From assembly GCA_003141415.1 (NCBI GenBank), contig PLLX01000162.1, forward strand, positions 7,015 to 62,266: 55,252 nt of DNA. Direction: 5' to 3'. The position numbers and the translations under genes are program-made. Below, one piece after another: positions 26,370-39,759 of the stretch. Within the stretch, counting starts at the first letter, position 1, and each line of letters opens with the position of its first letter. The DNA is from Bacteroidales bacterium. GTDB lineage: Bacteria; Bacteroidota; Bacteroidia; Bacteroidales; VadinHA17. The notes beneath the pieces were generated by a model, which had not been told where the DNA came from, ran no database searches, and saw only the letters and a program-made list of their open reading frames with translations.

Positions 26370-27515
26370 ATGAGTTCACGAAGAAAATTTCTGACAGATT
26401 GCGGAGTCCTTGCCGGAAGCGCCGGATTTTCATATATGACAATCGGGAAGCATGATTGGAATGAATATACTAAAAAACCTGCAAAAAGTTCAGGACTGAG
26501 CTTACGTTTTAAGCCTTATGAATTGCATTTGAAACATGTTTTTACCATAGCCGAAGGATCGAGGAGCACAACACCTGTAATGCTCACTGAGCTTGAGTTT
26601 GATAATATCATTGGTTATGGTGAGGCATCCATGCCACCTTATCTCGGAGAAAGTCACGAAACAGCCACTTCCTTTCTTAACAAGGTTGATCTGACTCAGT
26701 TTGAAAGCCCTTTCCTGATGGAAGACATACTTGCATATGTCGATCAGCTCGTTCCGGGAAACTATGCTGCAAAGGCCTCCGTTGACATCGCTTTGCATGA
26801 TCTGGTAGGAAAGCTTATGAAACAGCCGTGGTACAAAATATGGGGACTCAATCCGGATAAAACTCCGAATACTTCATTTACAATTGGTATAGATAAACCG
26901 GAAGTTGTCAAAGCAAAAGTCAGGGAAGCAGCTCCTTACAGAATTCTTAAAGTTAAACTTGGGCACGGAAATGATAAAGAAATGATCGAAGCGGTCAGGA
27001 GCGAGACTGATAAGCCGATTTGTGTTGATATTAACCAGGGCTGGACAGACAGAAAAATGGCACTTGATATGTCGTTCTGGCTGAAGGAGAAGGGCGCTGT
27101 CTTCATTGAACAACCGATGTCCAAAACTTCAACTGACGATACAGCATGGCTCACACAAAATAGTCCGTTACCAATTATAGCTGATGAAGCTTTTCAGACA
27201 ATCAGTGATTTTAAGAAGGTACAGGGAGTCTATAGCGGAATAAATATCAAGCTGATGAAATGCGGCGGACTGCGCACTGCCTTCATAATGATAAAGATGG
27301 CCAGGGCGCTTGATATGAAAGTGATGATTGGTTGTATGACTGAAACATCATGTGCCGTGACGGCAGCAGCACAGCTTTCACCTTTGGTTGACTGGGCCGA
27401 TCTGGACGGGAACCTTCTTATTGATAATGATGTATTTAAAGGAATATTAATCAGGGACGGAAAGATATCTCTTCCTGAGACCTCTGGAATAGGAATCAGT
27501 AAAAACAAAACATAA
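26370..27515 (+). CDS. L-Ala-D/L-Glu dipeptide epimerase (enolase superfamily) with Tat-like leader
   Basis: KVKLG, DINQGW, EQP, ADE, NIKLMK, GCM and DLDG motifs; start placed at MSSRRKFL. Confidence 0.9.
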   Translation: MSSRRKFLTDCGVLAGSAGFSYMTIGKHDWNEYTKKPAKSSGLSLRFKPYELHLKHVFTIAEGSRSTTPVMLTELEFDNIIGYGEASMPPYLGESHETATSFLNKVDLTQFESPFLMEDILAYVDQLVPGNYAAKASVDIALHDLVGKLMKQPWYKIWGLNPDKTPNTSFTIGIDKPEVVKAKVREAAPYRILKVKLGHGNDKEMIEAVRSETDKPICVDINQGWTDRKMALDMSFWLKEKGAVFIEQPMSKTSTDDTAWLTQNSPLPIIADEAFQTISDFKKVQGVYSGINIKLMKCGGLRTAFIMIKMARALDMKVMIGCMTETSCAVTAAAQLSPLVDWADLDGNLLIDNDVFKGILIRDGKISLPETSGIGISKNKT

Positions 27516-28870
27516 TGACAAGAAAAAGAGTTGTTTACGGAGTATTGATAATCCTGGGAGCTGCGATAATCGGAGTAACTGTTTATTTAAATAGTTTGCT
27601 GCCAATAATTACAGGGTATGCTGCAAAAAACCTTTGTTCTGATGTATTTGTATCCTTAAGGGATCCTGGAAATGTCGAGGCCATAGACCTTAATTTTTCG
27701 TTTATAAAGTTGACAAAGAACAGTATAAATTATGATGAGAAGAGCGTAACCAGTCATTTTCTCTGGGGCAAATCCAAAGCAATTTACAGAGCAGGATTCG
27801 GAGTAACACTGTTAAGAGATATTCCGGAAGAGAAGCTTCGTAAAACAAGATATCCTTCAGGTATTGATCCCGGATATTCCCAGGATACTTTAAAATGGCC
27901 TCTTGGTGATATTGTGCCAGGGAAGAATACCGGAATTGACACGTTAAAACTTAATGATATAGCAAAAAGATTAATAACAGACAATGCCTATAATGGAGAT
28001 GTATTTGCATTTATTGTAATTCATAAAGGGATCCCGGTTGCGGAAGCGTACAAACCTCAATTCAATCAAAAAACAAGATTTCTGAGCTGGTCAATGGCAA
28101 AAAGTTTCATAAATGCCATGGTTGGGATTCTTGTAAAACAGGGTAAACTGGATATCATGAAGCCGGTTGGCATCGATGAATGGAAAAACGATGAAAGAAG
28201 TAAAATAACGCTGAACAACATTATGCAGATGCAAAGCGGACTGAAATGGAACGAGGATTATGGAAACAGGTCAGATGTAACCCTTATGCTTCATTGTGAA
28301 AGTGATATGGCTCATTTTGCATTGGATCGGCCTTCAGCATACCCGGTCGGCGCTCACTGGTATTATTCCTCGGGGGCAACTAATATTGTCAGTTATCTGA
28401 TTCGCAGGCAATTCAGTAATGACTCTTCATATTATGTTTTTGCGAACAACCAGCTTTTTAACAAGATTGGTGCTCCTGATGCTGTTTTTGAGGTTGATCC
28501 AACCGGCACAAGGGTTGGATCTTCTTATCTGTATGCCACAGCACGTGATTACGCAAGATTTGGATTGTTGTTTGAGAATGACGGAGTATTCAATGGAGAA
28601 AGAATTCTACCTGAAGGGTGGGTAAAATACAGTACATCAGTTGCTTCAGCAAGTAATGGGCTATATGGATCTTTTTTCTGGCTTAACAGAGGTAAAAGTT
28701 TGCCATCGGCACCTGAAGATATGTATGCATGTGACGGACACGATGGACAACATATTTACATTCTGCCAACCCAGCAACTGGTTGTTGTTATTCTTGGATA
28801 CTCACCATTATCAAAGGGAGGAATGGATACCGATGGGCTGCTGAAAGATATTTTAGGGACACTGAAGTAA
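27515..28870 (+). CDS. Serine hydrolase, beta-lactamase/PBP-like family
   Basis: SWSMAKS (SxxK), YSS and LPEGWV motifs. Confidence 0.88.
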   Translation: MTRKRVVYGVLIILGAAIIGVTVYLNSLLPIITGYAAKNLCSDVFVSLRDPGNVEAIDLNFSFIKLTKNSINYDEKSVTSHFLWGKSKAIYRAGFGVTLLRDIPEEKLRKTRYPSGIDPGYSQDTLKWPLGDIVPGKNTGIDTLKLNDIAKRLITDNAYNGDVFAFIVIHKGIPVAEAYKPQFNQKTRFLSWSMAKSFINAMVGILVKQGKLDIMKPVGIDEWKNDERSKITLNNIMQMQSGLKWNEDYGNRSDVTLMLHCESDMAHFALDRPSAYPVGAHWYYSSGATNIVSYLIRRQFSNDSSYYVFANNQLFNKIGAPDAVFEVDPTGTRVGSSYLYATARDYARFGLLFENDGVFNGERILPEGWVKYSTSVASASNGLYGSFFWLNRGKSLPSAPEDMYACDGHDGQHIYILPTQQLVVVILGYSPLSKGGMDTDGLLKDILGTLK

Positions 28871-28931
28871 GTAATTAGATTCTATTTAACATAATGTCAG
28901 CCGGAAGGGTAGGTGATACCTGAAAACCTGA

Positions 28932-29405
28932 TCAGGTCTCTGTTAAGCTGCAAATTTCACTTCCGGCAGCAACAATGAGGTTATCAGGAGTTATTTTCAA
29001 CTGTAATCCCCTGGTGCCGGCGCTAACATATATCTGGTCGTAAAGTATGCAGTTTTCGTCAATATAACTGGAATATTTTTTCTTCATTCCAATTGGTGAA
29101 CATCCGCCACGGATATAGCCGGTGAGTTCAAAGATTTCTTTCATCTGGACCATTGCTGCGTTCTTGTTGCCTGATGCTCTGGCTGCTTTCTTCAGGTCGA
29201 GTTCCTTACTGCCAGGTATGATGCAAATGAATACACCTGTCTTATCACCTTGTAAAACCAGTGTTTTAAAGACCTGATCAACATCCTGTTGGAGTTTTGA
29301 AGCTACGGCATACGCACTCAGGTCTGATTCATCCACATCATATGGAATTAGTTCATAGGATATGCCTTTTGAATCGAGTAACCGTGCTGCGTTTGTCTTA
29401 TTCAT
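28932..29405 (-). CDS. ybaK: Cys-tRNA(Pro) deacylase
   Basis: KTNAARLLD, VFKTLV, TGYIRGGCSPIG and SAG.RG motifs. Confidence 0.95.
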   Translation of the reverse strand: MNKTNAARLLDSKGISYELIPYDVDESDLSAYAVASKLQQDVDQVFKTLVLQGDKTGVFICIIPGSKELDLKKAARASGNKNAAMVQMKEIFELTGYIRGGCSPIGMKKKYSSYIDENCILYDQIYVSAGTRGLQLKITPDNLIVAAGSEICSLTET

Positions 29406-29578
29406 TGTGAGGTTAATTATTTTCCCGGCAAAGTAAGATTATACTGTTAGGTATACTGTAAATATACCAATATGTTCAATATCGATTATATCACCTCTGT
29501 GGATTTAACTTCGTAAGCCGTAGCTTTCTTTACCGGAAGCATATATCAGCCAACAAGCTAACCGGAAATTCTTTTTAA

Positions 29579-29609
29579 AAAGCCTATAATGTATTGCATT
29601 ATGTAAATA
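29579..29609 (+). other. Degenerate dif-like (Xer) site at the left island boundary
   Basis: AAAGCCTATAA-tgtattgca-TTATGTAAATA; arms resemble the 35813 site but the spacer is 9 nt. Confidence 0.4.
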
Positions 29610-29854
29610 TAGCTTAGGGTAGAAGGCTGGAGACTCTCTGTCCGTAATAGCCCTTCGCCATGTCAGTAATCATAATGGGAGGGAAGGGAAAAAGCTTTTC
29701 TTTATTTATGGCAAAAAGAAACACTCTTTTTTCCGGAGCGAAATCCCACCGACGCTTATGGCTATAGCGGACGAGGGGAGAAAAATGGGTGTTCGTTTTT
29801 GGATGGAGTAAATTAGTGGTGATTATAAAACAATGGAAGTAATTTGATGTATCT

Positions 29855-31177
29855 TTGGTTGATTCAAATATTTCAATCAATTTGACTAATCGTAAAGAAT
29901 ATAATCTGACAGATTTTACAAATGTGTATAGTAGAATAATGCAATTTGATAAGAACAAATCAGCATATATTCATCAATGGTATCCATTTGTAGAGGGTTA
30001 TTCAAAAGAGTTTATTACTAGTATAATTGACGAGTTAGACTACAAACCAAAACATGCATTTGATCCTTTCGTTGGAAGTGGTACTACACCCCTAGAACTT
30101 CAAGAAATAGGAATAAAGTGTTCCTCTTTTGAAGTAAGTCCATTTATGCATAAATTGGCAACCGTAAAACTTGAAAGGAGTTATAATCAGAATGGTTTCC
30201 AAAATGCATTAGATGCTGTTTGTCATAATCTTAACGGAAAATTGCTTCCAATTAGAAATATTATGGAACCACCAATTGCAAAAACAATTCAGCAAAGAAA
30301 AGGCCTTGATAAGTGGCTATTTAACAGACCAGTAATGGATGGTATTCTTGATATTAAGCATGTGATTTGTAAAATTGGTGATGAAAAGTATAAAGATTTG
30401 TTTACTATTGCGTTAGCATCAATTTTACTTGATGTCAGTAATGTTTATAGGGATGGGAAAAGCGTAAAGTATAAGAAAGATTGGAAGAGAATAAAAATAA
30501 AGCGGAGAGATGTACATTTGAAATTTGTAACTGTATTAAAAGAAACTTTTCTCCCGGATATCATACTATTAGAATCAAAAGAGATAGTTGTTGAAAACAA
30601 AGATTTGTGCATTCTAGGGGATGTTAGAGAAGGTATTAAAGATTTTAAAGATGATAGTATTGATCTTGTAATAACTTCTCCGCCTTATTTGAATTCTCGG
30701 GATTATACTGATATATATATAGCGGAACTTTGGGTTTTGGGATTTATCAAGAATTACGATGAATTAAGATCACTAAGGAATCGAACCATACGATCACATG
30801 TGCAAGTCAAGCACGGTGATATTGAAATTATTGATTCGCAAGAATTAAGAAATGTAATCGGAAAACTATCAGAGAATACCAAGGACCATTGGAATAAGGA
30901 AATCATAGGTATGATTAAAGGATATTTTTTAGATATGAAGAATTTATTTATAGAGTTACGGAAAAAAATGCAATCTGAAAAAAAAATTTTCTTTAATGTA
31001 GCTAATTCTGCATATTATGGGGTAGAAATAAAAGTTGATATGATCATGGCCGAAATAGCCGAAAATTGTGGATTTAAAGTTGAAGAAGTTCGAAAAGCCA
31101 GAGATTTAAAACCTAGTAGTCAACAAAAAGATCTTATTGATTCTTTGAGGGAAAGTATTATTGTTCTAACCTCCTAA
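29855..31177 (+). CDS. Amino-DNA methyltransferase (alpha order, probably N4-cytosine)
   Basis: Motif I FDPFVGSGTT precedes motif IV TSPPY; HQWYPFVEGYS. Confidence 0.9.
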   Translation: MVDSNISINLTNRKEYNLTDFTNVYSRIMQFDKNKSAYIHQWYPFVEGYSKEFITSIIDELDYKPKHAFDPFVGSGTTPLELQEIGIKCSSFEVSPFMHKLATVKLERSYNQNGFQNALDAVCHNLNGKLLPIRNIMEPPIAKTIQQRKGLDKWLFNRPVMDGILDIKHVICKIGDEKYKDLFTIALASILLDVSNVYRDGKSVKYKKDWKRIKIKRRDVHLKFVTVLKETFLPDIILLESKEIVVENKDLCILGDVREGIKDFKDDSIDLVITSPPYLNSRDYTDIYIAELWVLGFIKNYDELRSLRNRTIRSHVQVKHGDIEIIDSQELRNVIGKLSENTKDHWNKEIIGMIKGYFLDMKNLFIELRKKMQSEKKIFFNVANSAYYGVEIKVDMIMAEIAENCGFKVEEVRKARDLKPSSQQKDLIDSLRESIIVLTS

Positions 31178-31187
31178 TAAATTATTA

Positions 31188-32303
31188 TTATCTAGGATTT
31201 AGGTTTTCAACTCTAAGATCTGGAAATTTATTAAACTGAGCTGAATACAATTTTAAATCGTCAGAAAGTTGTGACATATCAAAGTTTTCGCAACTATCCT
31301 TTTCTGATTTATTTGATTGAGCATCAAATACAGCTAAGAAACCTATCTTTATTTTTTGATTTGTTTCATAGAGCTCTTTAATATATTCAATTGATTGAAT
31401 TACTGCATCCGGACTAATATCACGTTGCTGATAACATATTCCAAAATTATCGCCCTTTGCATGGATGCTTAAACCGATCCATTTAACTTCAATTAAATAT
31501 AGTTCACCAAAATTATCCCTAATAAAGATATCCAAACGTCTAAAATTCTCAAGAATGTACTCTTTCCCTAGGAAGGACCCTTGTAGTTTATTTACTAAAA
31601 AAATTCTTAAGTCTTCTCTAAAGATATCCTCAGGTTTATTGTTAAGTAGCTGTTTGTTATCTTCTAAAAAATCTTCTATAGATAACACTGTCGTATCATT
31701 GTCTCTTAGAATTCTATGTAAAGCAATTTTTCCAGAATTAGGAACAAAAAATTTACTGTAGGTGTTTCTTTGCCGTAGATTAATCTGATATTCATGAATT
31801 AATTCATCGATTTGATTAATGTCTTTAAGTTTGTTAAATCTATCCTGATCAGCGGAAGAATAAAAAATTGAATCACCAACATCATAACCATAAATGAAGT
31901 AATGAACCCCTTGATTGCTAATATGAAATACACAGTATTCATTAGATATTTCAGTATAAATTCTCCTAACATCATTTCCATTGGTGAGTAATTTTCGTTC
32001 TGATAATATAACATCAAAGTTCCTGTCTACAATAATATGATTGTTTGTAGCTAATCTAACAGTTCCAAGCTGTATATTAATATTATCAATAATTTTTTCA
32101 TATAAGTTCTCAATTTCTCCATAATCAATCAGAATAGCTAAAAAACCCGTAACAGGGTGATTATTTTGATAAGTTTTGAGAGATGCTAGGAGTCGTTTGA
32201 AATTATCATTTTCATTAATCCCTGATGTACCTCTTTTAATAATCTTATATTCGTTCTTTCTAATGAGACTTGTAAAGTCTTCGCCTTTAAATTCAAATGT
32301 CAT
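31188..32303 (-). CDS. Hypothetical protein with C-terminal PD-(D/E)xK-like nuclease
   Basis: PEDIFREDL...RRLDIFI...LIEVKW pattern. Confidence 0.6.
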   Translation of the reverse strand: MTFEFKGEDFTSLIRKNEYKIIKRGTSGINENDNFKRLLASLKTYQNNHPVTGFLAILIDYGEIENLYEKIIDNINIQLGTVRLATNNHIIVDRNFDVILSERKLLTNGNDVRRIYTEISNEYCVFHISNQGVHYFIYGYDVGDSIFYSSADQDRFNKLKDINQIDELIHEYQINLRQRNTYSKFFVPNSGKIALHRILRDNDTTVLSIEDFLEDNKQLLNNKPEDIFREDLRIFLVNKLQGSFLGKEYILENFRRLDIFIRDNFGELYLIEVKWIGLSIHAKGDNFGICYQQRDISPDAVIQSIEYIKELYETNQKIKIGFLAVFDAQSNKSEKDSCENFDMSQLSDDLKLYSAQFNKFPDLRVENLNPR

Positions 32304-32304
32304 A

Positions 32305-32916
32305 CTAATTCCTCTTTATGATTTTACCGAAGATATATTCAAAATAAAGTTCCAAATATTCTCTGTCATCAATTTCGGAAACATCGTTAAGAGTTTCTTC
32401 GAATGCAATTTTAAATCTATTAAGAATATCTATTGTTTTATTCTGGTCTGATATATCTAGTTCTTTTTGGGAATTACGTTGAAAATCGTCTATATACTGT
32501 GGATCCTGTATTACAAACCCAAAAACTCTCTCTTCACCATAAAGACCTAAGATGTAAACAATTATTCTAAACCATTTTATTTTGCTATTTTCTGAACTGA
32601 AAATTTCTTTAATATTATTAAAATCAATACTTAAATTACCAGGTTTATCCTCGATAATAATTTCGCGTCTTTTTAAGTCAGTAATAGATCTATCAATAAT
32701 TTCAGAGTAGGGACCTGTAAGCGAAAGAGAAAAATGATAATTAGCATATGCAAGGTCATCTTCCTTGTTCATAAACGAATAAAGGACACTTGATAAATAT
32801 AAGATCCTGTGTATTGAAGGTTCTCTAAATTCAGACCAGCCTATTTCATTTGCAATCTTAAACAAATCAAGCAGATCTGAATTAACTTCGAACAAGTCAA
32901 CTGTCTTTTCTTTCAT
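32305..32916 (-). CDS. Small winged-helix-like protein (SocA/ABC-3C middle-component-like)
   Basis: IHRILYL...F...GPYS pattern; overlaps the ATPase stop. Confidence 0.5.
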   Translation of the reverse strand: MKEKTVDLFEVNSDLLDLFKIANEIGWSEFREPSIHRILYLSSVLYSFMNKEDDLAYANYHFSLSLTGPYSEIIDRSITDLKRREIIIEDKPGNLSIDFNNIKEIFSSENSKIKWFRIIVYILGLYGEERVFGFVIQDPQYIDDFQRNSQKELDISDQNKTIDILNRFKIAFEETLNDVSEIDDREYLELYFEYIFGKIIKRN

Positions 32917-34939
32917 TGATATTATTTTGAACTTTTTTTAAAATTGAATTAAGATTAGAATTAATGTTTTGGATAGATGATTTCTTTCCAATATCTAGCA
33001 GGTTAATTATTGACACATTTTTGGCATGCTTGGCAAGATAATTTAAAAATTCACTATTATTGATATTCGTAGTTAGTATTAGGCAGTATGGATTTTTTAA
33101 AAATTCTATAAAAACATCAGCTGCATTGCGTTCATATGAAATATCAAGACTACTGTCTGGAGTTTCAACCATATAGAACGATGGATTTTTATAGAAAAAC
33201 GATAGGATACTCATCCTAAATGAATGATCGACAAAGAACCTCTGCGACTCTGATAGTTCTTCTTCTTGTTCTCTTATTTTACCATCTATTACTGGATAAA
33301 ATCTTTTTTGACCATTTATATCATCATATGTTAATGAACACTTTACACCCAAAAATTTTTCAGCGTATCCTGAAAAGAGGCTCGAAAAACTTAATGCATT
33401 AAATAGGATTTCCTTTTCGATTTTATCATATATTTCTTGAGATCTCTCTTTGTAATTTCTACTTTTTTCTTGAAACTCGTCCTTTTCAATTTCAAGTTTA
33501 GCAATCTCATCATAAAAGGCTTGAAGATTGTCACCAGAAGCATTAGTATCATTCTGGCTTTTAACTAAATCGAATTCAAGATTTCGTAATTCAGAATTAA
33601 TTTCCCTTAACTCTTGATTATATTTTTGGAACTCTTTATCCAAATCATGAAGTTTTGATTCTAAGACATATACCTCATTTTGAAATTCACGAATACGAGT
33701 ATATGATGCAGTTATTTTCTCTCTATGAGAATCGCTCAAAGTATTAACTTCTTCTGGTACAGTTATTAATTGATCACACAAAATACAATTCTTATCATTG
33801 GATATCTTTTTTTTGATAAAACCTTCATCAAGCTCATTGCTACATAAGGGACATATTTGGTTTGCACTTAGACTTTTTACATATAGATCATAGTTCTTAT
33901 GTAAAGATATCCACCTTCTTTGTAATGCTTCTTTTTCAGCCATTTTCTGATTGGCTTCAAGTTGTGCAATTTCAAGACTAAGTTCATTTATTTTGTTACT
34001 TAAAATTTTCAATTCCTTATCAGATTCTTTTCTGAGATCTTGAAGAGATGTCAGTCTTTCAGAAATATTTTCCTTACTAATTCTTAGGGCTTCAATTTTT
34101 TCTCTGATAGTTTTAGGCTGGCCTGTTGATTTGTTAACCTCGACGTTTTCTAACACCTTTTTAATTACCCGAATATCTTCAGACTTGTGCCTAGCTTGTG
34201 TATCAAAATACTTTGCTTGTCGATTCGCTTCTTGTCTTTCTGTATTTAATACTCGATCATTAAAATATTTATTAAATAATTCGGTTTGGACATCATTAAA
34301 CTGATCATTATTCCATAGAATTGTTCGATGATCCTCACCTAAAAATAGAATTTTATTAACAAAGAATATTAGATCATCAAATTGCATATTTGAGAATTTC
34401 TCGAATGTCTTTTCGAATATGAAAGGGAGGGTAGACTTTAAAGTATCAAATAACCGATTTTTATTCGATATATCAGATTCTCTGGAGTATTCATAGAATA
34501 ATCTATCATATTCATATTGGTCAATTAAGGTTCCATTAAGTTGCATATTATCGACAGAAACACTAAGTATTTTAATCTCATCCATAGCTCTTACAACCTC
34601 GAAAGGAGTCCCATTAACTAAATATTTGATCTTCACTTTAGGGGAAGAATCAATTTCAATTGATTCATCCATTCTTTTTTTAAAGTAATTCCACGGATGA
34701 GGTATACGTTTTTCAATTTTATTACCTAGATAAGTTCGCGTAAAATCAAATCCTTCTTTGTAATGGCCAATAATTGAATACTTGATTACATTTACAAGTG
34801 AGGTCTTTCCCATGCCATTTCCACCCACGATAAGGTTTACTCCATTAATGAATTTATACTCAAAATCAAGACCATTAGGGAACAAAGTAAAGTTCTTGAT
34901 GGCAATAAACTCTAATTCAGGGAGATAGATGTCATTCAT
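32897..34939 (-). CDS. SMC/Rad50-like ABC ATPase
   Basis: Walker A GGNGMGKTS; long coiled coils with CPLC and CILC; signature LSESQ; Walker B-like YMVETPDSSLD. Confidence 0.85.
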   Translation of the reverse strand: MNDIYLPELEFIAIKNFTLFPNGLDFEYKFINGVNLIVGGNGMGKTSLVNVIKYSIIGHYKEGFDFTRTYLGNKIEKRIPHPWNYFKKRMDESIEIDSSPKVKIKYLVNGTPFEVVRAMDEIKILSVSVDNMQLNGTLIDQYEYDRLFYEYSRESDISNKNRLFDTLKSTLPFIFEKTFEKFSNMQFDDLIFFVNKILFLGEDHRTILWNNDQFNDVQTELFNKYFNDRVLNTERQEANRQAKYFDTQARHKSEDIRVIKKVLENVEVNKSTGQPKTIREKIEALRISKENISERLTSLQDLRKESDKELKILSNKINELSLEIAQLEANQKMAEKEALQRRWISLHKNYDLYVKSLSANQICPLCSNELDEGFIKKKISNDKNCILCDQLITVPEEVNTLSDSHREKITASYTRIREFQNEVYVLESKLHDLDKEFQKYNQELREINSELRNLEFDLVKSQNDTNASGDNLQAFYDEIAKLEIEKDEFQEKSRNYKERSQEIYDKIEKEILFNALSFSSLFSGYAEKFLGVKCSLTYDDINGQKRFYPVIDGKIREQEEELSESQRFFVDHSFRMSILSFFYKNPSFYMVETPDSSLDISYERNAADVFIEFLKNPYCLILTTNINNSEFLNYLAKHAKNVSIINLLDIGKKSSIQNINSNLNSILKKVQNNINERKDS

Positions 34940-35812
34940 AATTCACTAAATTCAATTATTAACATATAAAAGTACAAAACTTAATTAAAATCATTCAAGA
35001 GAGATCCATAAATAAATAAAATGTATTTAAATGTCGCCTAATTTCAAAATGATATTATTTCATACAATATTTTTGGGTGTGGTTATTTCAAATAGAATCC
35101 TTTTGAGCATATGTATTCCAAACTTAGCAGAGCGAATTTGCAAATACTTATGCGAACTCTTTGGAGAAAAACTTTTTGAGCGCAGTGAATAAAAAATCCG
35201 TATAGTGGCAAAGGGTAGCTAATTACATTAAGAAATTCTTTTGTAAATTGTTAACACAAAAGAATTTACAATGCAATTAGGGTTAACCGTGCGGCTATTT
35301 AATATAATGACTAAATATAGGCAAAAAGGGGGAGAAACTGGTTTTTATTATCCCGATAACTGCTCTTTTACTTACTTCATTAACCACTGAGATTGTAGGA
35401 TAAATTCTATTTGACATAATGTTAAAAGGCATGTTTAACGATATAAAGCATTGGGTACAAGAAGAATGCAAATACAACTTCTACAACCTCTATTATAGTA
35501 CAACCATTTATCACCTTTAAAGCCTTTACAGCTTCTACAACATTTTTTCTGACAGATATATAACCAGGATCAAAATAATCGATTCTAGATGGATTAAAGG
35601 CTGTCGCCCGAAGCCTCATGCCGGTCGCCAATTCTATTTGATATAATATTCAATTATAGCTGCAAAAAAAGGCAATAACGGGATGGAGCAAATTGCAGTA
35701 CTGGGAAGACCGCAAATTGCGTTGACATAAAATCGTAGCCGATATAGGGCTGTTACACAGCCGCTATATCTGATTTTATGTCAAATACTGCGTATATGCA
35801 ATTTGCTGGCGT

Positions 35813-35840
35813 TTTGCCTATAATTAATATTATGTAAAAT
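35813..35840 (+). other. dif-like XerC/XerD site
   Basis: TTTGCCTATAA-ttaata-TTATGTAAAAT; 11-6-11 layout, XerD arm 10/11 to TTATGTTAAAT. Confidence 0.65.
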
Positions 35841-35961
35841 AGGATATTTAACTTTTAGAGAACAACAATCACTTTAACCTGAATCTTCTAACCCACTGCT
35901 GCGCCTATTGATGCATTTTGTTATCCGATATATAAAAGCAGTTTCTTCATCAGGCGGAAAT

Positions 35962-35993
35962 AAAAAAGGGACGTAATTTTTTACATCCCTTTT
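35962..35993 (-). terminator. Intrinsic terminator of the gyrA-TPR operon
   Basis: AAAAAAGGGA...TCCCTTTT hairpin. Confidence 0.65.
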
Positions 35994-36015
35994 CTATAAT
36001 TATATAAGATTTTTC

Positions 36016-37176
36016 CTATTTTTTGTCGATAGCATCAAGTTTGGCTTTGATTACGGTATACTTGTCAGTCATTTTAAGTCTGTAATATAATTCCTGCAGA
36101 CTTCTCATTGTATAAACATCATCGGGTTTAAGTTCATAGGCTTTTTCCATATAAGGAAGAGCTTTAGCATACACTGCGTTTGCTACATCAATTGCTTCAC
36201 TGTATTTTTTTACATCCATGATTTCGTTGGCCTGTTTAAACATATCAGCAGCTTTGTTAATGTACGCAGCACCCAATCCGTATTGTGAATCATATACGTC
36301 TCCTTTGAGCTCAATTGATTTGGTAAGTTCAGGTATTGCTTCATCATATTTATTTTGATTCAGGAAGATAATGCCTGATGCAAGGAACAAACTGGAATTA
36401 TTCGGGTCTGCTTCCTTGGCAACTTTGATATATTTCTGAGCCTCTTCATTCTTACCACTCTTAATATAAAGATCGATTAGCTGCAATGTGACGTTTTTGT
36501 CATTTGGAAATTTGCTGCTTAATCCGGTCAGAACTGTTTCAGCCTTAGCTGTGTCGCCTACACTAAGATATGCTTCTGACATCTGAAAATATGGGGTAAT
36601 TCCCATGTATTTCATTTCAGCACATTTTTCGAAGTATTTAATTGCATCGGCATATTTAGCTGAATTCACAGCAGCAAGACCAGCGTTATAATACATTCCT
36701 GTATCAACAGCTCCCACGTATATGTCACTTTCAGTTATTTTAATCTGTGTTTGGAATGATTGAAGCGCTCCTGCATAATCTTTAGCTTCAAATTTTGTAC
36801 TACCCTGATTATAAAGACTTATAGCAAGGTTATTAAAGATGGAGCCAGTAATAATTTTCTTTTTTATTGTACCTTTTGGATCCAGTTCCATAGCTTTTTC
36901 GTATGCAGTAAAAGCTTCTGCAAGCGGGTCTTCATAATAAGCTTTGATCTTGGGATCTTTAGAATCAAATGTTGCCTGACAGAGTCTGCCTTTTGCAAAA
37001 TAAGTATTAAACCAGGTCGCTGTGGCCTCATTTGCCAAAGCCTGATCAATGGCATCTTTTGCTTTATCAAGAATTCCCTGGTCAATGTAACTGAGTGCAC
37101 TGGTAACCTTGCCCTTCTGGGCCATAGCTCCAAATGAAATACTAACGGCTGCTATCAGCAAAAAAAACTTTTTCAT
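36016..37176 (-). CDS. Secreted TPR-repeat protein
   Basis: Signal peptide; repeated A...Y.KA..L.P TPR pattern. Confidence 0.85.
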   Translation of the reverse strand: MKKFFLLIAAVSISFGAMAQKGKVTSALSYIDQGILDKAKDAIDQALANEATATWFNTYFAKGRLCQATFDSKDPKIKAYYEDPLAEAFTAYEKAMELDPKGTIKKKIITGSIFNNLAISLYNQGSTKFEAKDYAGALQSFQTQIKITESDIYVGAVDTGMYYNAGLAAVNSAKYADAIKYFEKCAEMKYMGITPYFQMSEAYLSVGDTAKAETVLTGLSSKFPNDKNVTLQLIDLYIKSGKNEEAQKYIKVAKEADPNNSSLFLASGIIFLNQNKYDEAIPELTKSIELKGDVYDSQYGLGAAYINKAADMFKQANEIMDVKKYSEAIDVANAVYAKALPYMEKAYELKPDDVYTMRSLQELYYRLKMTDKYTVIKAKLDAIDKK

Positions 37177-37233
37177 GTTTATAATTTTAATTTATTTGAC
37201 TGTAAAATTTCCTCAAATTTATAATATTACTTA

Positions 37234-39759
37234 TTAAACATCAAATTCTTTACCATTTTCCTCATCAATTATATTATTTTCTTCAGAAATACCTTTCTCT
37301 TCGGCCTCTTCTTCCTCATTAACAAGTACACAGGCTACTGATGCAATAATATCATTTTCCTTAAGGTTTATCAACCTTACTCCCTGTGTAGCTCTTCCCA
37401 TTACTCTTAATGCCGATACCGGACTTCTGAGAATATTTCCAAATTGAGTAATTATCATAAGATCATGATTATCAGTCACATCTTTCAATGCAATCAGTGT
37501 TCCCGTCTTTTCAGTTACATTAATTGTCTTTACTCCTTTTCCACCTCTGTTTGTGATTCTGTAACCATCTATATCGGATCTTTTTCCATATCCTTTCTCA
37601 GAAACAACCAGGATGTCTTTCTCTTTGTTTTCAACTGTTATCATGCCTACTACATAATCATTCTTTTCGCTTGCCAGTTTAATACCTCTGACGCCGGATG
37701 CAGTTCGGCCCATCGGTCTCACTGATGCTTCAGGAAAACGAATAGCACGTCCTGATTTAACAGCCAGCATAATATGATGTTGTCCGTTTGTCATTCTGGC
37801 TTCAAGAAGTTCATCACCTTCCCTTATGGTAATAGCATTTACTCCGTTAACCCTTGGTCGTGAATATGCTTCCAGCGAAGTCTTTTTTATGATTCCTTTA
37901 GTTGTACAAAGAACAATGAAATTATTATTAATATATTCTTCATCGTTCAGATTTTTAACATTAATGAACGCTCTTACATTATCATCCGGTTCAATGTTTA
38001 TAAGATTCTGCATAGCTCTTCCCTTAGAGATTCTTGATCCTTCCGGAATAGCATAAACCTTCAGCCAGTAACATTTTCCGTTCCTTGTGAAGAAAAGCAT
38101 GGTATTATGCATTGTTGCAATATACAGATGTTCGATAAAATCCTCGTCCCGTGTAGCACCACCTTTTGCGCCTGTGCCACCACGGTTTTGCCTTCTGAAC
38201 TCGGTTAATGGTGTTCTCTTGATATACCCCATATGAGAAATGGTAATTACCATCTCCTCATCGGCATAAAAATCTTCAGGATTAAACTCTTCAGCATTGG
38301 GAATTATTAAAGTACGTCTTTTATCGCCATATTTTTCTTTTACTTCAAGAAGTTCATCTTTAATAATTTTCATTTGAAGGTCAACATTTGCCAGAACACT
38401 TTTAAGGTATTCAATTAATGCCATTATCTCGCTATATTCTGCTCTTAATTTCTCCTGTTCCAGACCGGTAAGTTGTCGCAGGCGCATTTCTACTATCGCC
38501 TTCGACTGGATCTCTGAGAGTGAGAATCGTTCCATGAGCCTTTCTCTTGCCATATCCGGAGTCTGGGATCCTCTGATTATTGCAATTACTTCATCTATGT
38601 GATCACTTGCAATGATCAATCCAGCAAGGATATGTGCCCGTTTTTCAGCCTGATCAAGATCAAATTTTGTTCTCCTGATGATTACTTCATGACGATGTTT
38701 TACGAAATAATGTATTAATTCTTTAGTGTTTAGTGTTTTTGGACGACCCTTGACAAGCGCTATATTATTAACACTAAAAGATGTCTGAAGTGAAGAAAAC
38801 TTATAGAGGTTATTCAGTACCACATTTGCACTTGAATCTTTCTTGAGAATGATTACAATTCTCATCCCGTTGCGATCCGATTCATCATTTATATATGATA
38901 TCCCGTCCAGTTTCTTCTCATTTATGAGATCAGCAATTTTGCGGATCATCTCGGCCTTATTGACCATATAAGGAATTTCAGAAACAATAATACATTCCCT
39001 TCCGGAATGCGTTAATTCGATTTCCGTCTTTGCGCGTACAACTATCCTTCCTCTGCCGGTCTCTAGAGCATCTCTTATTCCCTGTTCACCATAAATTATG
39101 CCGCCGGTCGGGAAATCGGGCCCCTTTACAATGTGTAAAATTTCTTCGGTGGTAATATCATTATTATCAATGTAGGCTATTGTTGCATCAATAATTTCCG
39201 AAAGGTTATGAGGCGGCATATTAGTTGCCATTCCAACCGCTATACCCGAGGCGCCATTTACGAGAAGATTGGGTATTCTTGTCGGAAGAACAGAAGGTTC
39301 AGTTAAAGAATCATCGAAGTTGGGCTGAAAATCAACTGTATCCTTGTCAATATCAGCTAAAGTTTCCTCCGCAATTTTCTTAAGCCTTGCTTCAGTATAT
39401 CGCATTGCAGCAGGACTATCACCATCAACTGATCCAAAATTGCCCTGTCCGTCGACCAAAGGATATCTTAGTGACCATTCCTGAGCCATTCTTACCATGG
39501 CCTCGTATACTGAAGAATCACCATGCGGATGAAATTTTCCCAGCACCTCTCCCACTATTCTTGCCGATTTCTTATAAGGTTTATTAGAGAGGACTCCCAG
39601 TTCAGACATTCCAAATAGTACCCTGCGATGGACCGGTTTGAGACCATCTCTCACATCAGGTAATGCCCTCGATACAATAACCGACATCGAATAGTCGATA
39701 TATGCAGACTTCATCTCCTCCTCAATATTGACCTTTATGATTCTCTCTCTCTCTGACAT
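37234..39759 (-). CDS. gyrA: DNA gyrase subunit A
   Basis: [13 protein letters not shown] (catalytic Tyr) and GyrA-box-like QNRGGTG. Confidence 0.98.

Follow-up and report, generated by a model that had tools for sequence, protein, structure and literature searches.

In a stretch of 55,252 nucleotides (nt) from a Bacteroidales bacterium (assembly GCA_003141415.1, contig PLLX01000162.1; the whole stretch is hereafter called the window), positions 29855 to 34939 hold four genes, which encode an SMC/Rad50-like ATPase, a small winged-helix middle protein, a PD-(D/E)xK nuclease effector and a DNA methyltransferase (MTase). With a probability that we put at roughly one half, these genes form a mobile four-gene defence cassette in which restriction-modification (R-M) logic is joined to a Lamassu-type machine, that is, a methylation-gated restriction system derived from Lamassu. 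The initial annotation had proposed a candidate new defence system at this place, and its description of the four open reading frames (ORFs) was reproduced with regard to their coordinates, the coupling of the three minus-strand genes by overlap or 1-nt spacing, and the tail-to-tail arrangement with the MTase across a gap of 10 nt. The features are as follows.

29855..31177, plus strand: MTase gene, 440 amino acids (aa); the start codon is uncertain (mechanical TTG)
31178..31187, no strand: gap between the convergent stops of the MTase and nuclease genes, 10 nt
31188..32303, minus strand: gene of the effector (PD-(D/E)xK nuclease), 371 aa
32305..32916, minus strand: gene of the middle protein, 203 aa
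32897..34939, minus strand: gene of the SMC/Rad50-like ATPase, 680 aa

The ATPase and middle genes share 20 nt, and the middle and nuclease genes are separated by 1 nt.

The association of these genes was examined by a pattern scan limited to one genome per species, which yielded 45 loci, 26 of them close to the window (L004-L029) and 19 distant. In all 26 close loci, the ATPase, the middle gene, the nuclease and the MTase could be found by tblastn, and the order ATPase, middle gene, nuclease was constant in the window and in every one of them. An ATPase (21-29% identity), a nuclease and an MTase (26-32% identity) were detected in 16 of the 19 distant loci, where a gap of about 600 nt holds an ORF of about 205 aa in the place of the middle gene; the family of this ORF is homologous to the middle protein of the window (hhalign probability 96.1%, E 3.6e-9, 155 columns). 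Such recurrence in close and distant loci alike puts the four-gene arrangement far beyond chance. Among the three exceptional distant loci, L036 and L044 end at a contig edge, and L046 carries a relative of the nuclease alone. The latter (L046:7056-8396) is a lone 446-aa relative of the C-terminal half of the nuclease, with ATPase and MTase absent within 8 kb on each side. A metagenome scan seeded with the MTase returned three loci, two of which have the other three genes adjacent, the third being too short. Moreover, the full four-gene cassette was observed on three contigs classed as viral (L082, L083 and L084), and L082 is identical to the locus of Lutibacter maritimus (L005).

When every ORF of at least 90 aa across 49 loci was clustered, the nuclease cluster covered 48 loci, the ATPase 47, the MTase 44 and the middle gene 30 and 18 in two clusters, and no fifth conserved gene was found, as no other cluster occurred in more than 8 of the 49 loci. 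Of the 48 loci that hold the nuclease, 47 also have the ATPase and the middle gene, and the exception, L046, is also without the MTase. Four-gene co-occurrence, which the initial annotation had put forward as a check, is borne out: wherever the contig is long enough, the MTase accompanies the other three genes. Its placement varies. Among the 31 loci of family 1 (window included), the MTase gene lies downstream on the same strand in 24, is convergent in 5 and lies upstream in 2, and in the distant family it is downstream in 6, convergent in 1 and upstream in 9. The convergent MTase of the initial annotation is true of the window but represents a minority arrangement.

Carriers of the cassette span at least eight phyla, judged by record title, and include cultured strains, among them Lutibacter maritimus DSM 24450 and Flavobacterium calami DGU38. 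Near-identical cassettes (L014/L015 and L012/L013) were noticed in records titled as Erysipelotrichaceae (a metagenome-assembled genome, MAG), Bacteroides caecigallinarum and other gut MAGs across phyla, which reflects either recent transfer in the gut or mis-binned contigs. Two loci are decaying: at L021:5347-10367 all four genes are in pieces, with frameshifts that split the ATPase, the nuclease and the MTase, and at L009:5370-7406 one stop codon interrupts the ATPase frame. Loci L010 and L020 are truncated by contig ends.

The ATPase provides the clearest connection with Lamassu. Its best PADLOC match is LmuB (72.2 bits, E 8.9e-21, residues 14-579), with a score well above those of the PbeC, JetC, GajA, PtuA and DndD models, and LmuB is also the top PADLOC match for 14 of 14 ATPase homologues and for the ATPases of two more distant families. 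In Pfam only sub-threshold matches to SMC_N, AAA_23 and the Rad50 zinc hook were obtained, and in PHROGs the protein matches the phage SbcC-like family phrog_77 (E 5.9e-10). The window protein carries a Walker A motif GGNGMGKT (39-46), which is invariant as GGNGxGKT in 14 aligned homologues; the cysteine motifs CPLC (363) and CILC (385) at the coiled-coil apex, corresponding to four invariant cysteines in the middle of the coiled coil of the same alignment (CPxC and CxxC, 22 residues apart); and a signature LSESQ (562-566), of which SESQ is kept among the homologues. In the Walker B region, FYMVET (588-593), a Thr occupies the position of the usual catalytic Glu, and the corresponding patterns are hhhhETPDSSLD in family 1 and hhhhDTPEGSLD in the distant family. 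Short LmuB proteins are described, in the available text of PMC12663957, as having between zero and two CxxC motifs together with a Walker B motif of the form hhhhD[Q/S/T/E]. The features of a Lamassu LmuB (a Walker A motif, a divergent Walker B motif and zero to two CxxC motifs) are all present in the ATPase, and its sequence hallmarks appear to be a close match to short LmuB. The Thr in Walker B speaks for a switch that binds ATP and against a motor, as is proposed for LmuB in the available parts of PMC10586767 and PMC12663957.

The other two restriction-side proteins belong to no named family: neither the effector nor the middle protein has a family match in Pfam, PADLOC-DB 2.0.0, NCBIfam or PHROGs. 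In a word-indexed protein collection, 64 homologues of the effector (E <= 0.001) and 71 of the middle protein were found, and a profile of the effector, when searched against 1.84 billion cluster representatives, retrieved 445 of them with a threshold of E <= 1e-3, 161 with E <= 1e-10 and 65 with E <= 1e-30. Residues D258, E272, V273 and K274 are invariant in 18 aligned effector sequences and make up a PD-(D/E)xK signature. The AlphaFold model of the effector has a mean predicted local distance difference test score (pLDDT) of 83.6. When the effector and middle-protein models were compared with the PDB by Foldseek, nothing reached E <= 0.001. In an exhaustive structural search, effector residues of about 160-368 matched 1y88 (Z 7.5), BglII (7.2), Card1 (7.0), Cap4 (6.4), BamHI (6.3) and McrC (6.3). 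Taken together, these middling Z values and the motif make a convincing case that the C-terminal domain of the modelled effector (about 160-370) is a PD-(D/E)xK nuclease. In addition, 2 of the 18 effector members reach PDDEXK_4 (E 0.022), and neighbours in the Atlas include clusters of PDDEXK_9, PDDEXK_3 and NucS_C. The N-terminal part (about 1-160) is an alpha/beta domain, in which residues 28-146 are weakly similar to DisA/CdaA (Z 5.5-6.4, about 105 aligned residues). Diadenylate cyclases show the motif order DGA...RHR. A role of the effector N-domain as a diadenylate cyclase was rejected, given that the conserved R113 precedes G139 and that conserved residues lie in the predicted interface with the adaptor.

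The middle protein was modelled (pLDDT 82.4) with a winged-helix N-terminal half and a helical C-terminal part. Its best solved match among 48,161 chains is 7yk3_D, a chain of the DarTG toxin-antitoxin complex from M. tuberculosis (Z 8.9 over 137 residues), and many winged helix-turn-helix (wHTH) folds are matched with Z values of 5-7. Chains of LmuC are matched at Z 6.5 (9ny5_C, 122/171) and Z 6.1 (9hqx_d, 123/164), within a Z range that is common, and the Atlas model of the middle protein aligns with SocA_Panacea clusters at template modelling (TM) scores of 0.66 and 0.72. The predicted fold is a winged helix of the Panacea/SocA-like and LmuC-like kind. At the level of sequence, none of 19 middle-protein members matched PF13274 (SocA_Panacea) at E <= 1. 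The source labels 'DUF4194' and 'YwgA', which are attached to two homologues of the middle protein, were not reproduced by Pfam scans. For each of the designations SMC-like ATPase, wHTH-like adaptor and PD-(D/E)xK nuclease, all made in the initial annotation, support comes from motifs and from searches by fold.

A physical contact between these two proteins was also predicted. The complex of effector and middle protein, modelled with a separate alignment for either protein, reached an interface score (ipSAE) of 0.82, compared with 0.00 for the best of three controls; in the calibration of ipSAE, 58 of 80 solved complexes came up to this mark, as did 2 of 110 mismatched pairs. Three runs agreed in at least 94% of contacts, with a partner pLDDT of at least 85. 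This prediction supports binding of the nuclease effector by the middle protein. A sequence search of solved structures returned nothing for the effector and nothing significant for the middle protein, and recall of a solved complex by the predictor is unlikely because no sequence-similar solved complex exists. On the effector side, the predicted interface lies mostly in the N-domain (residues 3-47, 69-72 and 133-156) and also takes in residues 243-268 and 315-317, beside D258 and E272 of the catalytic site. The middle protein contributes its C-terminal helices, with an invariant YxELYFEY motif. The adaptor may thus dock on the nuclease in such a way that the active face is possibly covered.

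The fourth gene encodes an MTase that matches Pfam N6_N4_Mtase (E 6.1e-9), PADLOC MTase_II over its full length (E 1.4e-57) and the phage methyltransferase family phrog_18146 in PHROGs (E 2.6e-43). The SPPY motif named in the initial annotation is present (S275-Y278), together with an N-terminal FxGxG motif (P71-T78). Since the N-terminus of the protein (residues 17-102) aligns to the C-terminal end of the Pfam profile, the motif order is permuted, with motif I (PFxGxGTT, 71-78) preceding motif IV (SPPY, 275-278). Both motifs are at least 90% conserved among 34 MTase homologues from all families, and the alignment of these 34 sequences is almost free of gaps, without an indel-rich target-recognition region. 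As is characteristic of type II R-M systems, the S-adenosylmethionine (AdoMet)-binding and catalytic motifs of the MTase are intact. A sequence search of solved structures gave weak N4/N6 matches (4e-4 for 2zie, and about 0.09 for each of two N4-cytosine enzymes). The SPPY motif is typical of N4-cytosine methyltransferases, and judged from it the enzyme is probably specific for N4-cytosine. In 400 genomes of the same phylum, the nearest relative of the MTase shows 32% identity. In addition, 29 loci of MTase relatives were fetched, and none had the other three genes within the 1.5-kb flanks, implying that the wider MTase family is ordinary and that one branch alone is tied to the system.

Based on these features, a scheme of methylation-gated restriction could be drawn up. 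The MTase would mark the host chromosome, and the ATPase, the adaptor and the nuclease would form a single complex. In this complex, a dimeric LmuB-like SMC ATPase, whose arms would be joined at the four-cysteine zinc apex, would bind ATP; hydrolysis is expected to be slow because Thr replaces the catalytic Glu. The winged-helix, Panacea/LmuC-like adaptor would bind the N-domain of the nuclease and keep the enzyme inactive beside its catalytic face. Where it encounters unmarked DNA, perhaps at ends or at intermediates of replication as Lamassu does, the ATPase-adaptor module would release or activate the nuclease, which would then cut, and methylated host DNA would be spared. Within this scheme, we infer that methylation protects self DNA, and the trigger, the reading of the mark and the restraint of the nuclease by ATPase and adaptor are inferred as well.

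Several points weigh against the reading as methylation-gated, Lamassu-derived restriction. No phenotype, methylome or biochemistry was found for any member of the family. The fold matches have middling and common Z values, which range from 6 to 9 with the adaptor and reach 7.5 with the nuclease. The LmuB model has low specificity, giving matches at E <= 0.001 in 14 of 14 control genomes, and a weak match to it therefore carries little weight; the runner-up match of this model in the same genome scores 34.5 bits versus 72.2 for the window ATPase. Neither sequence nor profile searches at E <= 1 retrieved the solved LmuB chains; only Rad50 heads were found. The effector has no PADLOC match to LmuA at E <= 1 (E <= 0.01 for the other families), and the middle protein has no PADLOC match to LmuC.

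The histories of the genes were compared in 21 intact loci and give evidence on both sides. Pairwise distances of the ATPase, the middle protein and the nuclease are correlated at 0.97 each, with none of 2000 permutations as high, and those of the MTase are correlated with the other three at 0.56-0.64, all of these correlations being inflated by the relatedness of the sequences. By this measure, the three restriction-side genes co-evolve tightly as one unit, which favours the reading; the trees and the swaps of the MTase speak against it. In the tree of ATPase and nuclease, the window and L008 group with L004-L007 and L011 (support 99), and in the MTase tree the window, L008 and L028 fall together (support 98), apart from the group of L004-L007 and L011. 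In approximately unbiased (AU) tests, the ATPase and nuclease data reject the grouping of the window with L008 and L028 (delta log-likelihood 152, p = 2e-61). The MTase data reject a seven-row clade (delta log-likelihood 40, p = 0.0012) and a clade of L018 (delta log-likelihood 205, p = 4e-53), both of which were named for testing after the two trees had been seen. At the level of DNA, L018 (136-6786) and L012 are 91% identical over the MTase and its downstream flank and 83% identical over the upstream flank and the start of the ATPase gene, and the restriction-side genes align in patches of about 72% only, with a break at the nuclease/MTase junction. Furthermore, at L006:5394-14252 (Flavobacterium calami) two tandem three-gene sets are followed by a single MTase. 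The proteins of the first set have 662, 201 and 370 aa and those of the second 670, 236 and 372 aa; the second set belongs to a third divergent family, whose ATPase shares about 23% identity with every other one, and its nuclease gene is overlapped by the MTase gene by 4 nt. These comparisons of sequences and trees indicate that the MTase has been swapped between lineages at least twice, and mark it as a component that is obligatory yet interchangeable. A nuclease with matched sequence specificity should not tolerate such swaps, which argues that the restriction-side genes are without individually matched sequence specificity. Either a recognition mode is common to the MTases, in agreement with their near gap-free alignment, or reading of the mark works differently.

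In a more specific and tentative proposal, the cassette would represent a distinct, Lamassu-derived class of R-M, in which a suicidal, SMC-gated nuclease is tamed by a methyl mark from an interchangeable MTase and the mark is read without a co-evolved sequence specificity of the nuclease module. The mark could be read, for instance, if the SMC-adaptor complex stalls or disassembles on methylated DNA. Another explanation is a classical ATP-dependent R-M system, in which unmethylated sites are the trigger, the MTase or a shared specificity defines the sites, the ATPase serves as a clamp or loop-former that takes the nuclease to the sites, in the manner of the motor subunits of Type I and Type III enzymes, and DNA ends are irrelevant. 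Such site-triggered restriction is in agreement with the near gap-free alignment of the 34 MTases, which fits a shared recognition mode and would account for the swaps, with the linkage of the MTase in every locus that has enough contig and with the match of the nuclease fold to many Type II restriction enzymes, and it deserves consideration as a rather unlikely explanation: the replacement of the Walker B Glu by Thr in all families argues against a processive motor, and the ATPase has its nearest counterpart in LmuB, a protein with solved relatives that detect DNA ends according to the available parts of the sources.

The cassette resembles classical R-M systems in having an MTase of the Type II pool beside a PD-(D/E)xK nuclease whose fold matches BglII, BamHI, EcoRV and others, and in the variable position of the M gene (upstream, downstream or convergent). 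It differs from Type II systems in that the endonuclease does not stand alone but has the ATPase and the middle gene as companions in 47 of 48 loci, and from Type I and Type III systems in that the ATPase is of the ABC/SMC type and not an SF2 helicase. The swapping of MTases between restriction-side lineages is a further difference from classical R-M. A 2025 review of host-dependent R-M contains no mention of SMC, Lamassu or Rad50.

Lamassu (the short or type II LmuA-LmuC-LmuB systems, DdmABC of Vibrio cholerae, and 'ABC-3C') is similar to the cassette in several respects. Both have an SMC/Rad50-like ATPase of about 650-680 aa with a Walker A motif, CxxC motifs and a Walker B motif without the catalytic Glu, a small middle protein (of predicted winged-helix fold here), an effector whose docking involves a non-catalytic domain (predicted here), and three closely coupled genes that are mobile and sporadic in their distribution. 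On the other hand, the gene order is ATPase, middle gene, effector in the cassette, whereas the canonical order is effector, middle gene, ATPase in the available text of PMC12663957 and PMC10586767. The domains of the effector are also arranged in reverse to those of LmuA, with the nuclease C-terminal (about 160-370) and the docking mostly N-terminal (3-156). Finally, an MTase is always attached here and none is mentioned in the portions of the Lamassu texts that were searched, which include a structure paper and a review of SMC immunity. The statement of the initial annotation that Lamassu usually has the effector first and lacks a methyltransferase agrees with what these two sources say in their accessible parts.

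It could still be argued that the cassette is an ordinary abortive-infection Lamassu, in which DNA ends are sensed and all DNA of the cell is destroyed, the MTase serving not as a self-mark but, for example, to counter a leaky nuclease, in epigenetic regulation, or to stabilise the island as an addiction module. The LmuB-like ATPase, the LmuC-like fold of the middle protein and the predicted sequestration of the effector would all be expected of such a system, and published Lamassu acts by abortive infection (PMC10586767, available text). We regard this explanation as improbable: a methyltransferase goes unmentioned in the available part of PMC12663957 and the string 'methyl' has no occurrence in that of PMC10586767, the MTase is kept with intact catalytic motifs in three divergent families, and all four genes decay jointly in L021, as expected if nuclease and MTase are interdependent.

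Other defence systems with ATPases of related architecture were also considered. The CxC-clade ABC systems (PbeABCD) and Dnd share with the cassette a coiled-coil ABC ATPase, a cysteine zinc apex and a small DNA-binding partner, and some CxC ATPase systems have, in place of phosphorothioation, a link to cytosine methylases, circularly permuted N4 types among them, as far as the accessible parts of the sources go; a later paper of the same school credits this finding to Krishnan et al. 2020. According to the same partial text, PbeABCD combines the CxC ATPase with DndE, which has two ribbon-helix-helix domains, and with an HKD-SF2 helicase nuclease. The cassette differs in having a winged-helix partner and a stand-alone PD-(D/E)xK nuclease, and its matches to PbeC and DndD are well below that to LmuB. 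A modification machine of this kind, in which the ATPase and its DNA-binding partner scan the chromosome and guide the MTase to its sites, and the PD-(D/E)xK protein acts as a nickase or a secondary restriction component, would agree with the finding that all 14 ATPase homologues also match PbeC models (best 1.5e-12). It is nevertheless very unlikely, considering that PbeC scores 24 bits versus 72 for LmuB with the window ATPase, that the partner is a winged-helix protein and not a double ribbon-helix-helix DndE, that no conserved gene for an HKD helicase or a small disordered protein lies nearby, and that the MTase has an evolution of its own, separate from that of the other three genes, whereas joint evolution would be expected in a tight modification complex.

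MADS (methylation-associated defence system) of Pseudomonas aeruginosa is an eight-gene system. Like the cassette, it is a methyltransferase-linked defence with an ABC-type ATPase-nuclease module, and 14 of 14 ATPase homologues match the mad3 model (best 3.8e-14) over the ATPase head only. With the PADLOC MADS models, which run up to mad8, only head-domain matches to mad3 and mad8 were obtained, below the score of LmuB, and no other mad gene is conserved in the cassette. The pair MAD3-MAD4 is described as an OLD-family ATPase-nuclease pair in the available text of PMC13662399. With regard to Panacea (SocA-like, PF13274), the likeness is structural only. Panacea antitoxins bind and silence toxic enzymes, and for the middle protein, too, the prediction is that it binds a toxic enzyme, which it may silence. 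It differs in having no sequence match to PF13274 and in being a component of an SMC complex and not of a two-gene toxin-antitoxin pair.

Overall, the cassette would work most like Lamassu combined with R-M, and it is not a member of canonical Lamassu, CxC/Pbe, MADS or plain Type II systems. The initial annotation had allowed that all genes might match a described system, and such matches were obtained for the ATPase (LmuB-like) and the MTase (Type II) only. No description of the four-gene set was found in the literature on Lamassu, ABC-3C, LmuB, Panacea, SMC-like ATPases, zinc hooks and R-M, with Krishnan et al. 2020 and its supplements outside the coverage, and the chance that a prior description exists is put at roughly one in four.

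In the window, the four genes lie in a segment that is absent from relatives.

28871..36015, no strand: inserted segment, missing from the same site in two genomes of the same genus (G018 and G010)

The GC content is 0.28-0.32 over positions 30000-35500 and 0.36-0.44 in the flanks, in line with the AT-rich block described in the initial annotation. In a search of 61 genomes, the ATPase was absent from all 36 of the same genus, and only two other matches, both short and weak (E 8.5e-6 and 8.1e-4), were obtained. The low GC content, the absence from the 36 same-genus genomes and the empty site in two relatives identify an accessory island, and the four-gene cassette was acquired horizontally. 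A TPR gene (36016-37176) sits between the four-gene block and gyrA and is conserved in 24 of 25 genomes of the genus. In G018 and G010, this TPR gene is a neighbour of the homologue of the window gene at 27515-28870, at distances of about 580 and 273 bp, respectively. Compared with these genomes, the window has a surplus of about 7 kb; besides ybaK and the four-gene cassette, this surplus contains about 1 kb of DNA that is non-coding. The initial annotation had placed the block between ybaK and the gyrA operon; the position holds, but the TPR gene intervenes before gyrA and the insert probably includes ybaK.

The ybaK-like gene (28932-29405) lies inside the inserted segment, and its GC content of about 0.40 is unlike that of the cassette. 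A homologue is present in 1 of 25 genomes of the genus, in a different context, and the gene is probably accessory too. Upstream of the ATPase gene, about 1 kb (34940-36015) contains no ORF longer than 69 aa and has no Rfam match. Its TPR-proximal part, though not about 34940-35300, has exact matches of 20-27 nt with the native intergenic DNA of the relatives. Because the right-hand 0.7 kb or so of the segment shows such short exact matches to the native intergenic region, the true right border of the insert may lie near 35300. A motif of about 24 nt, with a consensus close to the copy at 35403, occurs at both edges of the insert (28878-28901, 35403-35426 and 35630-35653), with inverted copies near 35083 and 35846, and also in the empty TPR-side intergenic regions of G018 and G010; it may be a native repeated element or an insertion target. 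An Rfam scan of 28800-36200 found nothing, a scan for tRNA genes over 27000-38000 found none, no convincing long direct repeats were found at the island borders, and a tblastn search of 72,556 plasmids with the ATPase gave no match.

This genomic context also bears on the question of whether the cassette serves defence at all. A module for the maintenance of a mobile element, or an SbcCD-like repair module travelling with an orphan MTase, would be in keeping with the matches of the ATPase to phage SbcC-like proteins (phrog_77) and Rad50 heads and with the presence of the cassette on three contigs of viral collections. Such a non-defence role can hardly be expected, in that no Mre11/SbcD-type phosphoesterase is present and the distribution is sporadic, with no copy in 36 same-genus genomes and no relative above 32% identity in 400 same-phylum genomes. 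The low-GC island, and the fast divergence of the restriction-side genes between conserved flanks, are usual signs of conflict systems.

The available text of PMC12663957 puts the share of prokaryotic genomes with Lamassu at about 15%. Current understanding is that Lamassu kills infected cells, since its effectors do not distinguish the DNA of host and phage. If a machine of the Lamassu type does always come with an MTase, it would be a natural experiment in which self/non-self discrimination has been added to an SMC sensor, and it would link the two largest families of DNA-targeting defence. Self-sparing immunity arising from abortive infection would constitute a new route to self/non-self discrimination. 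The family is not tiny, as judged by the 161 effector cluster representatives at E <= 1e-10, and its cultured carriers allow the methylome and phage resistance to be measured. Moreover, the free exchange of MTases between divergent nuclease modules poses a concrete puzzle as to how the mark is read.

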